Below the pieces are notes generated by a model. The model ran no database searches. It worked only from the letters and a program-made list of their open reading frames with translations, and was not told where the DNA came from. The position numbers were made by a program, and so were the translations under genes. A DNA stretch of 64,000 nucleotides from Eledone cirrhosa (lineage: Eukaryota): NCBI GenBank assembly GCA_964016885.1, contig CAXHJY010000255.1, forward strand, positions 1-64,000. The letters are read 5' to 3'. The number at the start of each line of letters is the position of its first letter. Position 1 is the stretch's first letter. This document shows, piece by piece, positions 228-61,372 of the stretch.

Positions 228-506
228 GATATTAAACAAATGGAAACTATATTTATAAAACCATATTTATTTCATTATACATATTTCAGGGATACCATAT
301 TAAAAATATGGCATGCCTTCTTCAGATAAAATACAATATATAAGCAGTTTTATAAATAAATTTGACGTACCATAAAATAATTGATCAACTCCATTTAAAA
401 AGTTGTTTATAATATTGTATATCTACTCCAAAACTTGTTGAGTGCTTTATATCAGTTATAAAATATTTACTCGTTGTAACCCAACAATTTTAAATAAAAC
501 TTTTGC
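228..506. mobile_element. Penelope-like terminal fragment (family A), internally inverted, in (TA)n
   Basis: Homologous to 14649-14906, 44398-44810, 46758-47030 and 61098-61372; carries a hammerhead motif on the minus strand. Confidence 0.65.
268..333 (-). ncRNA. Minimal type I hammerhead ribozyme
   Basis: UAUUUUAU-CUGAAGA-AGG(C)AUGCCAUAUU..AAUAUGGUAU(C)CCU-GAAA-UAUGUA-UA-AUGAAAUA. Confidence 0.7.
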
Positions 507-810
507 ATATATATATATATATATATATATATATATATATATATATATATATATATAATATATATATATATAAACTTTAATCAATGAACAAAGACATTAA
601 TAATCGACCATAAGGTGTATATATGTGTGCGTGTGCAACATCAGTGTTTCACACTGATCTGTGTTTTATCTTACACACACACACACACACACACACACAC
701 ACACACACACACAAAGACACCCCCCCCCCCCTCCTCCTCCTCTCTCTCTCTCTTGATAAATATTTACAATAACTTGCTAGAATGAAGATACAGTTTCTGC
801 CACATTATTT

Positions 811-1205
811 GTCGGTGGATTGGCAGTATCGGTAGAGGGTCGGACGCCATGCTTTCCAGCATAGTTACGTCCCTTTACGATCTGAGTTCAAATCCCGCCG
901 AGGTTGACTTTGCCTTTCCTCCTTACGGGGTCGATAAAATAAAGTACCAGTAATGCACTGGATAATTGCTGGCCTTGTGCCTAAAGTAGAAACAATTATT
1001 TGTATATTTAAGGGCGGTGGATTGGCAGTATCGGTAGAGGGTCGGACGCCATGCTTTGACGCATAGAGTTACGGCCCTTGCCATTCTGAGTTCAAATCGC
1101 GCCGAGGTTGACTTTGCCTTTCATCCTTACGGGGTCGATAAAATAAAGTACCAGTAATGCACTGGGATAATTGCTGGCCTTGTGCCAATAGTAGAAACAA
1201 TTATT
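811..1205 (+). mobile_element. Two tandem tRNA-derived Meta-domain SINEs (octopus OK-like)
   Basis: A-box-like TGGCAGTATCGG, B-box GAGTTCAAATCC, Meta-like core GTTGACTTTGCCTTTCATCCTTACGGGGTCGATAAAATAAAGTACCAG, ATT-rich tail; many copies in window. Confidence 0.8.
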
Positions 1206-1499
1206 TGTTTATTTATTTAATCACTTTAAAGGTCTGTATAGAGCTAGTAAGCCATGACGGACTATATGAGGTGTCTAATGGCCCTTACAGTTAAGTAACA
1301 AAAACAATAGAGAGAGAGAGAGAGAGAGAGAGAGAGAGAGAGAGAGAGAGAGAGAGAGAGAGAGAGAAAAACAAAGGTGGGGGGGTGAAAAACTAGGGCA
1401 GATATAAAGTAGCTAGAAAGTTCTGTTGTTGAATCTTTTTATAACCCTATATAGTGAAAGATCTTGTTAATAGTATCTTGAATCTTGGTAGATTTTTAA

Positions 1500-1707
1500 C
1501 CCTTTAATGTTCACACCAGCCAAAACCGGCCAGAATTCTCTACCTCTTTCTGTTGAAACTGGCTGTAACTGGTCGCTCAAACTGATGTTAAGGTATTGTT
1601 CTCAAAAATAAATACTTTCAAAATCTCATAGATTCGATATTATTTGAGATAATTATGCGAGGTAAAGCCTTTACCATGAAAATATAATAGTATATAATGC
1701 TAAAGGG
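1500..1707. mobile_element. piggyBac-type MITE
   Basis: TTAA|CCCTTTA ... TAAAGGG|TTAA termini with TTAA target duplication. Confidence 0.7.
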
Positions 1708-57074: not shown

Positions 57075-60000
57075 CATGACTACTAACCAACAGGCCTACA
57101 GTGGACAAAATTGGTCTGATAATGAAATTGACCTCTTAATAAACACATGGTTTTCTCTGTCCCAAACAATAAACATTAACGCTTCGTGTCTGAATGAGAT
57201 TGCTGAAAAAACAGTGCAAACATTCACCACGAAGTAAAACAAGTAAAACAAGTCGAAGTCTCTTTCAAACTAATTCAAAACCATTTTGAAAAACTTCGAT
57301 ATATTTACTCCAATGGTCAAACACAACAAGAGCGAGAAAAACAAGAGCCACTACTAAATTACAGCATAATAGCTTATTTACTGAACAATAGTATCTCTTC
57401 ACCACTCTCTCACAGCAACCACCATAGTTATCATCATCATTGTCATTACCTCCACTGCCACCATCGTCTTCTGCCACATCAACTGCTGGTAGTGGACCAC
57501 TGCTTTCTCACAGCATCACCCCAGTTATCATCATCATCATCGTCATCATCACCACCGCTGCCACCATCGTCCTCTTCCACCTCAACAACTACTAATAATA
57601 ATAATAATAATCCGCTGCTTTCTTCTTCCCCCCACATCGCCACCACAGTCCTGCTGTAGGTAGTACAAAGAACCTTTAAAAAAAAATCTATGTAGCTGTA
57701 TGCGCCCCCCCCCCCCCACTACACAAACAAGAAACCTCAAAATATGCCGCTACTCACTACGTCAGAGGCTCTGCACACGTAGCGACTGCATCTTCACTCA
57801 TTTACCTGGCACTAGACGCACAAACACTACCAGCCAACACCAAAGCATACTTCTCATAATAACACCAACACCAACACCACCAAATAGTAAACTGAGAGAG
57901 AGACTATGTCTGCTGCGTGACTGTCCCTTCAGTCATCTTCCAGGGACCCAATGCACTAACAGAAAAAGGGGCTCCGAGCCCACACACAAACCACAATAAA
58001 ACCACACCCTGCTGCAGTAATGCTGGTCCAGTCTTTTCACAAAGACACAAATACAACAACAACAAAAGAGGGAACTACAACCCTATCCAACAGTGTAACC
58101 ACAATTCCAGTCAAAAGCTGCTCCCTAAACAGGAAAATTTTTCTTTTTTTTTTTCCTTTTCTTCTTTTTTAGCCATGTTGAACCTGGCAAAAGAGATACA
58201 GAAAAACCTTTTAGCCATCACCCAACACCATCCTATGATATTACCCCAGTGCACCAACCCCCCACATTGCTGTCACTAACACACAATCTCAAAACAAGCC
58301 CCTGCAACAGTCAAAACCAACCACTACATTAGCCTCCACATTTATACTCAATGCACAAGGTGCATTGATGCCTATCCATCAATGCACAGAAATGGAAGAT
58401 CCAATTCATTGAGGATTGGGTTGGTAACCATCCACCCCACATCCCTTTCTTCATTCTGACTGAAACCCACTTGGAGGCCGAAGTAAAAGTGAGGAATTTC
58501 ATAACCATCCACGCAGATCGTGTTGACAGAAGGAAGGGTGGAAATGCCATTTTCCTGCATGATTCCTTTACAGAAATGGAAATATCACATTTTCCAATGG
58601 CTACTGTGAATCAGTCACCATGTACAACAAAGCCAATGACCTGATATTAGTTGGGCTCTATAGGCCACCACAAACACCTATAATGCGCTTCAAAGAATGC
58701 CTCAACAGCATTAAGTTCTTTATTAAACAGTGCCATTCTAGCAACACACTTTTGATGGAAGACTTTAATCTACCCTGTGTTGGTTGGACTACAAACAGTT
58801 TGAAACCAGGCACTCCAACCTCAACCACTGACAAAGAAGCAGTCGAGTCACTTCTCCACGTTATGAATGAGTTTTTCTTGTCCCAACTTGTCCTTGCACC
58901 AACAAGGTATCTGAAGAACATTTACGACCTAGTGTTTAGTAACCACACTAACACTATCCATAATATTACAGTCGAAAAAACCCTTCTTTCATGGTTCTTT
59001 GTAACCTGAGATTCTATCAGCCAAAAGCTAATCCTAGTGACCTCTCTCCAGCCCACCCATTTGATAACATGGATCTCTATAATGCCAACTGGGATGCAAT
59101 CATGAACGAGCTATCACATGTTGACTGGTCTTTTACACACGCACTCATTTCCACCAACATAAAAACATCTTGGCAGATCTTTGTAGACACTGTCACAAAT
59201 ATATGTGCAAAACACACGCCACCAAAACCTGTGAACAAAACTAAGTGCAGTATCCCCCAAATCAAAAAAACTATTATCAGAAAAATAAAAAGAACAAACA
59301 AAAAAATTAACACACTAAAATACTGCCAACAGTAACACACACATTCAATGGCTATCACCCTGCTTGAATCAAATAAATTATAACCTCCAACAATGCATGA
59401 AGACCATCATCAATAACCAAAGAACAGTTGAGAAGAAATGGGCAATTGAGAAAATCAAACTCAACCCCAAATTGTTCTTTTCATTTGCGAAAAAACACAA
59501 GGTCACTGTCTCCACTGTTGGCTCTCTAATTGATGAAAATGGCACACTCCAAGATAATACCAAAACCATGGGTGAGATACTGCAAAAAAACAATACTGCT
59601 GTTTTCAGCAATCCTGATATGACCGATCTGGGCCGTATCAGTGATGTTAATCCCCAACACACTATATCAGACATAACGTTTGGCACCTCTGATGTCTTAG
59701 CGGCAATAAACAAAATTAAACACAGTCAGCAGTAGGCCCCAATAGGTTCCCTGCTTTTGTCCTGAAGGTGTGTCGACACCAACTTGCATCTCCGCTTGCT
59801 AATCTGTGGAGGAACTCACTGGATACTGGCTATATTCCTGCAAACTTTCTGTCCCAGTCCATTGTCCCAGTTTTCAAAAAGGGAAACAAGTCCCTTGCAG
59901 TGAACTACCGTCCGATCTCACTCACCTCTCATATCATCAAGGTATTTGAGAGGGTGGTGAGATTACAAATAACCCACTTTCTCGAAAGCAACGGACTGCT

Positions 60001-61000
60001 GAACTCCAACCAGCATGGGTTCCGTAATGGAAGGGACTGCCTAACGCAGTTCCTGCATCACCAATGGATCATCAATGAGGTTGGTGACCGGACTTGCCTT
60101 CAGTTAGACCTACTGGCTGTTATCCAATGGGCAGAAAAAAACAATATGCTGTTGAACGAGGATAAATTCGAGTTAATCCACTTTGGAAAAGAGGATGCCC
60201 TGAAACTCCCATACTCTCTTCCTTCAGGTGAAACTCTCATGACATCCAGCAACATCACAGACTTGGGAGTAATTGTGGGCAACAACATAAGCTGGGCTAC
60301 TCATATAAACAGCAAAGTTGACATGGCCCGCAGAATGTGTTCCTAGATTCTCAGAACCTTCCACTCGAGAGATATCCACACTGTTATCCTTCTCTTCTCC
60401 ACATTTGCCTGACCCCACTTTGAATACTGTTGTCCACTGTGGTCTCCCCACACAAAACAAACTATCATGAAAGTTGAAGCACCTCAAAGGTCAATTACAA
60501 AAGAGATAGATGGCATGACTTCACTATTGGAGTCGATTAGAAAAACTCAACCTTTATTCTCTCCAACATCGCAGTGAGCGCTACATTATCTGCACGATGT
60601 GGAAGATATTCCATCAGTATTGCCCAAATGATGTTGGCATCACCTTTAAGTTACACCCAAGGCTTGGGCCCCGTGCTATCCACCCACAACAAAAATCTCA
60701 ATTGCATCTCATAACAACAATACGGCACAATTATTTCACCTCAATTGGCCCGGCTCTCTTTAACATTACACCAAAACACATCAAAACGGAAATAGACCCC
60801 GTCAAGTTCAAGAATTCTTTGGACAAATTCCTTCAAGAAATCTCGGAAAAAACTCCTACACCCGGCTATGTCACTGCAAACAATAACTCCTTTCTTGAGT
60901 GGGCCATGGTGCCCAAACCCTGATATGAAAGACTCCACCAGGTAGTGCTATTAAGTTAGACATGGCCTGGGCCAATACTGACCGAAAGCTATCAAAGTTA
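57075..61000 (+). mobile_element. CR1/L2-group LINE: ORF1 remnants, APE endonuclease, internally deleted RT
   Basis: ILTETHL, VGLYRPP, DFNLP, NYRPISLTS, NQHGFR, PHFEYCCPLWSP motifs; RT core missing; ends before (TA)n. Confidence 0.85.
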
Positions 61001-61097
61001 TATATTATATATATATAATATATATAATATATATATATATAATATATATATTATATAATATATATATTATATATATATATATATTATATATATATAT

Positions 61098-61372
61098 TTC
61101 CTAGGATAGTGGAAAACTTGAACTGTTAAGGTATTTTTCTTGGTTATGTCAAAATTTATTAAACACACTTCCTATTTTATCTGATGAAAGCGTACCAAAG
61201 TTTTGGTACCCTTGAAATATATATAATAGAATAAATATGGTTTTATAAATATAGTTTCCATTTATTTAATATCATTGAATATTATACTCCAGAAAACTTG
61301 TCGAGTGCTCTGAATCAGTTATAAACATTTATATTTGTTGAATTACCAACAAATTGAATATCCCTTATGCTT
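61098..61372 (+). mobile_element. Penelope-like terminal fragment (family A) in (TA)n
   Basis: Colinear with 44560-44810. Confidence 0.7.
61173..61233 (+). ncRNA. Minimal type I hammerhead ribozyme
   Basis: UAUUUUAU-CUGAUGA-AAG(C)GUACCAAA-GU-UUUGGUAC(C)CUU-GAAA-UAUAUA-UA-AUAGAAUA; predicted cleavage after 61225. Confidence 0.8.

Follow-up and report, generated by a model that had tools for sequence, protein, structure and literature searches.

Five hammerhead motifs are scattered over 64,000 nt of Eledone cirrhosa DNA (contig CAXHJY010000255.1 of assembly GCA_964016885.1, positions 1-64,000, + strand; hereafter the window). They raise the question of which mobile element deposited them and of what their RNA does. 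The initial annotation described a family of minimal ribozymes like those of Penelope-like elements (PLEs). According to the present analysis, the repeats are probably the 3′ ends, comprising the pseudo-long terminal repeat (pLTR) and the tail, of a high-copy and undescribed family of Hydra-clade PLEs, for which a priming mechanism is proposed.

Hammerhead structure and covariation

All five motifs are present with an intact core (copies c1 to c5 in Table 1), as annotated. Each consists of CUGA(U/A)GA, a stem II region of 26-31 nt, GAAA, an 8-nt stem III and 7-8 bp of stem I, the latter being only its proximal part. The type I core CUGANGA / GAAA / UH is found in 5/5 copies. The cleavage triplet, proposed as (A/U)UA, is AUA in every intact copy, and the predicted 3′ product of c5 would begin at 61226, the RNA 5′ end that had been suggested. 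A strict descriptor recovered 4/5 copies and gave 0 matches in 100 local dinucleotide shuffles; c3 (44614) escaped it owing to a U-U at the first pair of stem II. When a model built from the five copies was run on the window, it returned six copies (including the broken c6), reverse-strand echoes and one weak match. By identity the copies form three subfamilies, namely c1, c2/c4 (97%) and c3/c5/c6 (94-96%), with 85-91% between subfamilies, and core changes across them are limited to the free position 7. Scans for further copies gave none in a genome contig collection and none in a viral contig collection. Five loci matched in a metagenome contig collection were judged from their flanks to be chance matches.

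The hammerhead models of Rfam matched none of the five copies at E up to 1, and relaxing the limit to 10 for c5 and to 5 for c3 gave no match either. This is a library miss and not a biochemical criterion; the same models gave a sub-threshold match on a canonical motif at 45000-45070.

Stem II is built of 3 bp, a C opposite a C, and then 6-9 bp. Its first pair is A-U in 4/5 intact copies and U-U in c3, and U-U is also found in the broken copy c6. Among nine core pairs, three are changed on both sides, one on one side, four are invariant, and one is off only by a broken cell. Paired cells make up 97.9% of stem II, compared with 41-49% in slid controls. The covariation score was reached by 3/500 shuffles and the number of double-changed pairs by 24/500, in a control that ignores the relatedness of the copies. 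Since there are three subfamilies, approximately three independent samples are available for covariation. The annotated covariation of stem II with pairing kept is thus borne out by the double-changed pairs, but on this narrow sampling. The read comparison covered a 368-nt stretch at c4 in 4 of 14 runs, and its listing gives 40 of the roughly 100 variant rows and 21 of the roughly 426 loose ends. The listed variants include pair-keeping changes at 46910/46937, 46914/46933 and 46934, and none of them affects the C-C or the core.

The distribution of conservation along the repeats is uneven. Invariant columns number 35/40 in the 40 nt downstream of the ribozyme, 12/20 in stem II and 9/32 upstream, and the 45 nt just upstream of the module are 47-61% identical among c1-c5, mostly not above shuffles. 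Because pairing is kept, and because the module is so much better conserved than the divergent sequence immediately upstream, the earlier proposal of selection on structure is supported.

The C facing C at position 4 of stem II is constant in 5/5 intact copies, as had been reported. This number of copies is too small to show selection. The constancy carries no statistical weight because only three lineages are represented and 4/9 true pairs likewise never vary. As a prediction, a role as a conserved hinge or as a protein or metal site of this variant is most likely for the C-C, rather than a loop-loop contact. The suggested tertiary contact is improbable, and the helix I bulge, the candidate partner, differs in position and sequence between subfamilies.

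The copies have the three-helix type I layout ending in helix I, with a stem III of just 2 bp in the monomer. Fold prediction places a bulge beyond the proximal pairs of helix I, followed by an A-U arm of 11-13 bp, for a total of about 25 bp in c1-c4 (imperfect in c5). The description of these hammerheads as minimal consequently fails for helix I. The fold z-scores of the copies range from -1.6 to -4.5. In the monomer, the predicted pairing probability of stem III is ≤0.001, and forcing it costs about 2.9 kcal/mol. An 8-bp duplex between two palindromes is predicted at -3.2 kcal/mol for c2 and c5 and at -2.2 for c1 and c4. The near-palindromic stem III of the annotation is indeed perfect in c2 and c5, but pairs through G-U in c1 and c4 and contains mismatches in c3. 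The catalytic register of stem I is predicted to be well populated in c4 only. Because stem III is not predicted to form in the monomer, the hammerhead is likely to be silent as such and to cleave with the help of a second copy or a protein. Together with the insertion anatomy of PLEs described below, this agrees with the dependence on dimerisation that the annotation had given for PLE hammerheads. The most conserved segment 3′ of the hammerheads (e.g. 61236-61264, +) could form either the distal arm of helix I or a rival local hairpin, and may possibly act as a switch between the two folds.

Insertion anatomy and the bulged tail hairpin

The repeats are 260-280 nt long (one is longer) and are inserted in (TA)n, which adjoins 5/5 loci. 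A fixed point, referred to as B, lies 49-52 nt 3′ of the cleavage site in 6/6 copies. In c1, c2 and c6 the sequence stops at B, adjoining TA-rich sequence, while c3, c4 and c5 read through B into a tail of 89-92 nt that extends up to (TA)n. In c1 and c2 the tail is on the opposite strand, fused to the 5′ end of the hammerhead part. Three of the five loci have the inverted layout, with B as their common end. An inverted 5′-truncated copy with a tail at one end is the structure described for PLEs (PMC8557442). This arrangement is found here, as is a hammerhead within the pLTR, with the ribozyme upstream of B in 6/6 copies. Four copies (c1, c2, c3, c5) begin approximately 170-190 nt upstream of B. 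At the junction of c6 and c3 (44517-44564) there are three imperfect 15-nt repeats, perhaps the result of template jumps.

Point B recurs genome-wide: 892 + 5,065 reads of restriction site-associated DNA (RAD) have (TA)n loose ends at 46850/46855. The c4 stretch was found in 29,773 of 12,467,656 records of run X12 (RAD data, which give no copy number) and in 5,570 contigs of run X1, with 54 and 4 contigs from runs of two other organisms. From 46992 to 47043 the X1 depth drops about 20-fold, after which it forms a plateau below 1% of the peak. The depth of the repeat remains steady to at least 47120, and 115 contigs overrun the ends of the stretch. A 57-codon open frame (46929-47099, -) runs into the 5′ half of c4 and is also open in c2 and c1. 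A search for homologous proteins returned none, which is weak evidence, and a coding role was set aside on account of stops in c3 and c5.

The annotated idea that stem III mimics the (TA)n target is not supported by the junctions in the window, all of which lie at B, at the end of a tail or far upstream. No junction coincides with the cleavage site, either in the window or among the loose ends listed. Dimerisation in any case calls for a palindrome (PMC4209133). In a single read joint (6 reads, 2 starts), a B end is joined inside the stem III of another copy, so that occasional self-insertion into stem III is possible.

A bulged hairpin of the form RCUC-stem-NN-GAGY-RCU, whose inner stem covaries, starts 7-9 nt after B and is found in 5/5 tails of the hammerhead family. 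A descriptor with a 3-bp stem matched seven sites in the window, compared with a shuffle mean of 0.095 (maximum 2; 200 shuffles). All eight hairpin loci, including those in other elements (Table 1), lie 45-66 nt before TATATA; 21.5% of random positions are within 80 nt of it. No intact hammerhead core is present upstream of the hairpin in the fragment 38382-38575 (+). By eye, the hairpin can be recognized in 3/6 published Hydra consensuses, namely in the 3′ tails of Hydra-2_Amil and Hydra-2_Ajap and, twice, at the 5′ start of Hydra-1_Ajap. Hydra-1_Crog has, also by eye, a variant at both ends. A tail that forms the beginning of the next unit would account for the location at the 5′ start of Hydra-1_Ajap. 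The 5′ untranslated region (UTR) of a decayed PLE at 49507-52040 contains three degenerate look-alikes, one of which, as in Hydra-1_Ajap, precedes the likely start codon, here by about 23 nt. The end of the tail at 62 kb (fragment 62129-62265) resembles, by eye, the end of the sea cucumber Hydra-2_Ajap consensus. The hairpin is predicted to mark the start of reverse transcription.

The use of this hairpin as a Hydra criterion is proposed here and is not a published criterion. The main text of PMC8557442 contains no occurrence of hairpin or stem-loop, and neither the tail hairpin nor a C-C-interrupted hammerhead is described in the literature searched, which excluded Repbase, Dfam and most subscription papers. 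Repbase, Dfam and the supplements of PMC4209133, being outside the comparison, may already contain the family or the variant.

Table 1. Positions of the hammerhead copies, their insertions and tails, and other features of the window.
Feature	Position	Strand	Remarks
Hammerhead c1	268..333	-	core CUGAAGA; C-C 315/291; predicted cleavage after 276; extended helix I ~251-358
Hammerhead c2	14802..14864	+	C-C 14819/14842; predicted cleavage after 14857; extended helix I ~14777-14884
Hammerhead c3	44614..44675	+	first stem II pair U-U; C-C 44632/44652; stem III palindrome imperfect
Hammerhead c4	46889..46953	-	C-C 46935/46912; predicted cleavage after 46897; repeat extends upstream to at least 47120
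Hammerhead c5	61173..61233	+	C-C 61191/61210; predicted cleavage after 61225; distal helix I imperfect
Sixth, broken hammerhead c6	44438..44489	-	stem II 3′ arm deleted; inverted partner of c3; ends at B (44394), no tail
Insertion 1	227..506		(TA)n both sides; inverted hammerhead part ends at B (227), joined to + tail (~420-506)
Insertion 2	14649..14907		(TA)n both sides; - tail (14649-14730) joined to + hammerhead part, B at 14907
Insertion 5	61098..61369	+	(TA)n both sides; direct copy; B at 61277; 92-nt tail, bulged hairpin 61286-61309
Tail of c3	44720..44809	+	90 nt, B to (TA)n; bulged hairpin 44727-44749 and second hairpin
Tail of c4	46759..46847	-	89 nt; bulged hairpin 46818-46840
Bulged tail hairpin of c1	425..446	+	
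Bulged tail hairpin of c2	14709..14731	-	first base altered at inversion junction
Hairpin motif in different element	38501..38528	+	45 nt before (TA)n; fragment 38382-38575 ending in (TA)n; 6-bp stem
Hairpin motif	45546..45572	-	(TA)n-flanked fragment 45500-45579 (-) of another family
Hairpin motif	62184..62210	+	(TA)n-flanked fragment 62129-62265 (+), same family as 45546
Decayed Hydra-type PLE	49507..52040	-	reverse transcriptase (RT) + GIY-YIG; DKT, CxCX5C linker, RW motif; near full-length, many stops/frameshifts
Second Hydra-type RT fragment	52900..53780	+	YRDDG motif; cut off; faces away from first
Minisatellite array	5291..7029		long, homogeneous; unit 41 nt
Minisatellite array	8980..10228		long, homogeneous; unit 73 nt
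Minisatellite array	11415..14151		long, homogeneous; unit 120 nt
Minisatellite array	20380..22718		long, homogeneous; unit 39 nt
Minisatellite array	35839..38338		long, homogeneous; unit 70 nt
Decayed LINE fragment	57200..60990	+	AP endonuclease + RT domains
Decayed LINE fragment	54000..56050	+	second family, with PHD-finger relatives
Decayed LINE fragment	61400..62100	-	second family, with PHD-finger relatives

Clade assignment, proposed mechanism and alternatives

The usual target of Hydra elements, which also carry hammerheads, is (TA)n (PMC8557442). Insertion into (TA)n is common to Hydra, Naiad and Neptune and is not diagnostic alone. The assignment of the repeats as Hydra-clade 3′ ends is probable because their tail starts with the bulged hairpin found in published Hydra-clade consensuses. 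A U-U at the base of stem II, as in c3 and c6, is present in 14/26 Hydra rows of File S2 of PMC8557442. Membership in Hydra should be regarded as likely rather than established. A Naiad identity was also considered and rejected: four family motifs sought in the supplement of PMC8557442 occurred 0, 0, 0 and 1 times, the single occurrence being in an unrelated place, and the 3′ end of Naiad_Obim differs. Taken together, the repeats form a real, structured, high-copy family with a variant of the known PLE hammerhead, probably from the Hydra clade.

The window also contains two decayed Hydra-type open reading frames (ORFs). The diagnostics of the Hydra clade are the protein motifs DKT, RWK and CxCX5C together with RT phylogeny (PMC8557442). 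The ORF at 49507-52040 shows DKT, CxCX5C and RW and has 2,228 relatives at E up to 0.001 in an exhaustive search, as well as GIY-YIG clusters in Atlas; its pieces hit no Pfam family and gave no match in word-indexed or PDB searches. It is separated from c4 by a G-poor stretch, and neither the tails nor the bodies of the repeats align with its UTRs above shuffles. Neither ORF was assigned as the parent, because their flanks do not align with the tails.

Several observations weigh against a functional hammerhead family of Hydra-clade origin. No ORF is joined to any hammerhead copy in the window. Between c4 and the end of the closest Hydra ORF, which is on the same strand, there are 2.5 kb of upstream sequence with microsatellites and short interspersed elements (SINEs), and the 5′ UTR of this ORF aligns with the tails no better than shuffles do. 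The tail of about 90 nt exceeds the 30-40 bp usually quoted (PMC8557442), and the hairpin, matched by eye, is not evident in two of the six consensuses, Hydra-1_Amil and Hydra-1_Obim. Stem III starts with AU here and with AC in 26/26 Hydra rows of File S2, none of these rows has a stem II interrupted by C-C (3 bp + C-C + 6-9 bp), and the sequence differs from that of Octopus bimaculoides Hydra-1_oBim (PMC8557442). Instead of the conserved G10.1-C11.1 (PMC4209133), stem II opens with A-U or U-U. At the level of folding, the palindrome duplex of c3 is predicted at only -0.2 kcal/mol, and c1 (0.03) and c5 (0.15-0.18) are predicted to populate the catalytic register of stem I only sparsely. Finally, one abundant read variant breaks an outer stem II pair (loose end at 46913).

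The mechanism proposed for these repeats draws on two known behaviours. In vitro, the anole PLE uses two internal priming sites that bracket the tail, requires protein for hammerhead cleavage and copies mainly uncleaved RNA (PMC11167929). PLE hammerheads are inactive as monomers and weakly active as dimers (PMC4209133). By analogy, the model of two-site priming and an uncleaved template would apply here. The RT-GIY-YIG protein of the family would bind the structured RNA around B and the tail, with the conserved segment before B and the tail hairpin as its likely loading site. It would then cut (TA)n DNA and start cDNA at B and at the tail end, the two internal priming sites. Direct copies (c4, c5) would arise when only the tail end is used, and inverted ones (c1, c2, c3/c6) when both sites are primed from opposite strands. 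The copies appear to have been made from uncleaved RNA, because every one of them spans the cleavage site. The hammerhead would be silent as a monomer and would cleave when two copies in a tandem transcript pair via the (AU)4 palindrome, or when protein is bound; in this way it would process the multimeric RNA of the parent. Solo genomic copies are probably inert. A broader formulation is offered tentatively, and its odds are judged to be below even: from corals and sea cucumbers to Eledone cirrhosa, the hairpin at the start of the Hydra PLE tail would load the RT-endonuclease and set both priming sites, accompanied in the present family by a protein-gated hammerhead with a C-C hinge and a long A-U helix I that Rfam misses, and by priming of uncleaved RNA at its first pLTR-tail junction, which would mass-produce copies of about 270 nt with the ribozyme in TA microsatellites.

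The shared start of c1, c2, c3 and c5 can be explained in two ways: reverse transcription may be primed close to the mRNA 5′ end, or the repeats may be a short non-autonomous element in their own right. Such an element would be a PLE derivative of about 270 nt, SINE-like or resembling a monomeric retrozyme, that is self-transcribed and mobilised in trans by a Hydra-type RT-endonuclease. The steep fall of X1 depth to a plateau speaks for such an element, as do published non-autonomous elements derived from pLTRs (PMC8557442; bioRxiv 10.64898/2026.07.22.740005) and, weakly, the open frame without a homologue upstream of c4. However, the repeat continues at steady depth and many contigs overrun the stretch. 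None of the loci in the window forms a tandem array, and there are therefore no two consecutive units of the kind that define a retrozyme. An ordinary PLE mRNA would likewise yield a fixed 5′ end if RT started at its first pLTR-tail junction. The explanation by a dedicated element is considered unlikely, and the 3′ ends of a Hydra-clade PLE are preferred.

The function of the hammerhead itself also allows other readings. The dead-relic reading holds that the ribozyme has lost catalysis and is kept solely as a protein-binding structure. The weak A-U first pair, the U-U of c3 and c6, competing AU-rich folds and the stronger conservation of the 40 nt downstream than of stem II would suit it, and hammerhead mutants left the insertion of the anole PLE unaffected in vitro (PMC11167929). 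It is nevertheless quite improbable: the catalytic core and AUA are kept across three subfamilies, save the free position 7, and so is the palindrome, whose variants are G-U-compatible. Even less credence is given to a type I ribozyme active as a monomer and stabilised by tertiary contact, in which the C-C loop docks on the bulge of helix I. Helix I is long and bulged, the C-C lies approximately where loop 2 starts in canonical hammerheads with a 4-bp helix II, the fold z-scores are negative and the C-C is constant. Against this, stem III consists of two A-U pairs with a negligible predicted probability, the bulge varies between subfamilies in the poorly conserved upstream part, and all genomic copies derive from uncleaved RNA. 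Cleavage assisted by a dimer or by protein, within a Hydra-clade PLE, thus remains the preferred interpretation.

Other features, significance and comparison with known systems

The window is repeat-rich, animal-type DNA with microsatellites, satellites, SINEs and fragments of long interspersed elements (LINEs). The SINEs are probably of octopus types, and the matches to one LINE fragment came from distant marine invertebrates only. The hammerhead descriptor scan found no hammerhead inside the five minisatellite arrays (Table 1). A separate canonical minimal hammerhead occupies 45020-45057 (-) in a (TA)n-flanked fragment at ~44961-45150, as a single copy in the window. It has a G-C first pair, a 4-bp stem II, a palindromic stem III and a proximal stem I of 3 bp, and matches HH9 below threshold at 28.5 bits. 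It is a second PLE family.

Hammerheads in the pLTRs of PLEs, their dependence on dimers and the huge numbers of solo copies were already known, including in Hydra-clade elements of octopus. The new aspects are an architecture outside the published Hydra rows and a bulged tail hairpin. As Rfam misses the former, such ribozymes are probably under-counted. The hairpin is a candidate cis signal across distant Hydra families and the most useful lead, since it allows a direct mutational test of how the reverse transcriptase of PLEs picks internal priming sites. The repeats also lend genomic support, from a second clade, to the model of two-site priming and an uncleaved template seen in vitro for one lizard element.

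The features shared with Hydra-clade PLE hammerheads (PMC8557442) include a type I motif near the 3′ end, insertion in (TA)n, a palindromic stem III of about 8-10 nt, a long stem II in several families and the bulged tail hairpin of their consensuses. The present repeats differ from those elements in a helix I of about 25 bp, almost all A-U, and in the lack of a linked ORF. Minimal metazoan PLE hammerheads (PMC4209133) likewise have an unstable palindromic helix III that implies dimers and a helix II longer than usual. They too are found in thousands of solo copies, in opposite-strand pairs 100-700 bp apart, with many compensatory changes. In contrast to them, no extra base follows A9 here and helix I is long instead of 4-5 bp. 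The C-C loop is symmetric, whereas helix II of the D. virilis variant is interrupted by one bulged base (PMC4209133).

Non-LTR retrozymes (bioRxiv 10.64898/2026.07.22.740005) are, like the present repeats, short, non-coding and derived from pLTRs, and carry a type I hammerhead; the copies in the window are solo or inverted, without head-to-tail units. The anole Poseidon element PAc (PMC11167929) belongs to a different clade, and the tail of the present family is about 90 nt long. In both systems, two fixed end points bracket the tail, the target is AT-rich and insertion proceeds, as far as can be inferred here, from uncleaved RNA.

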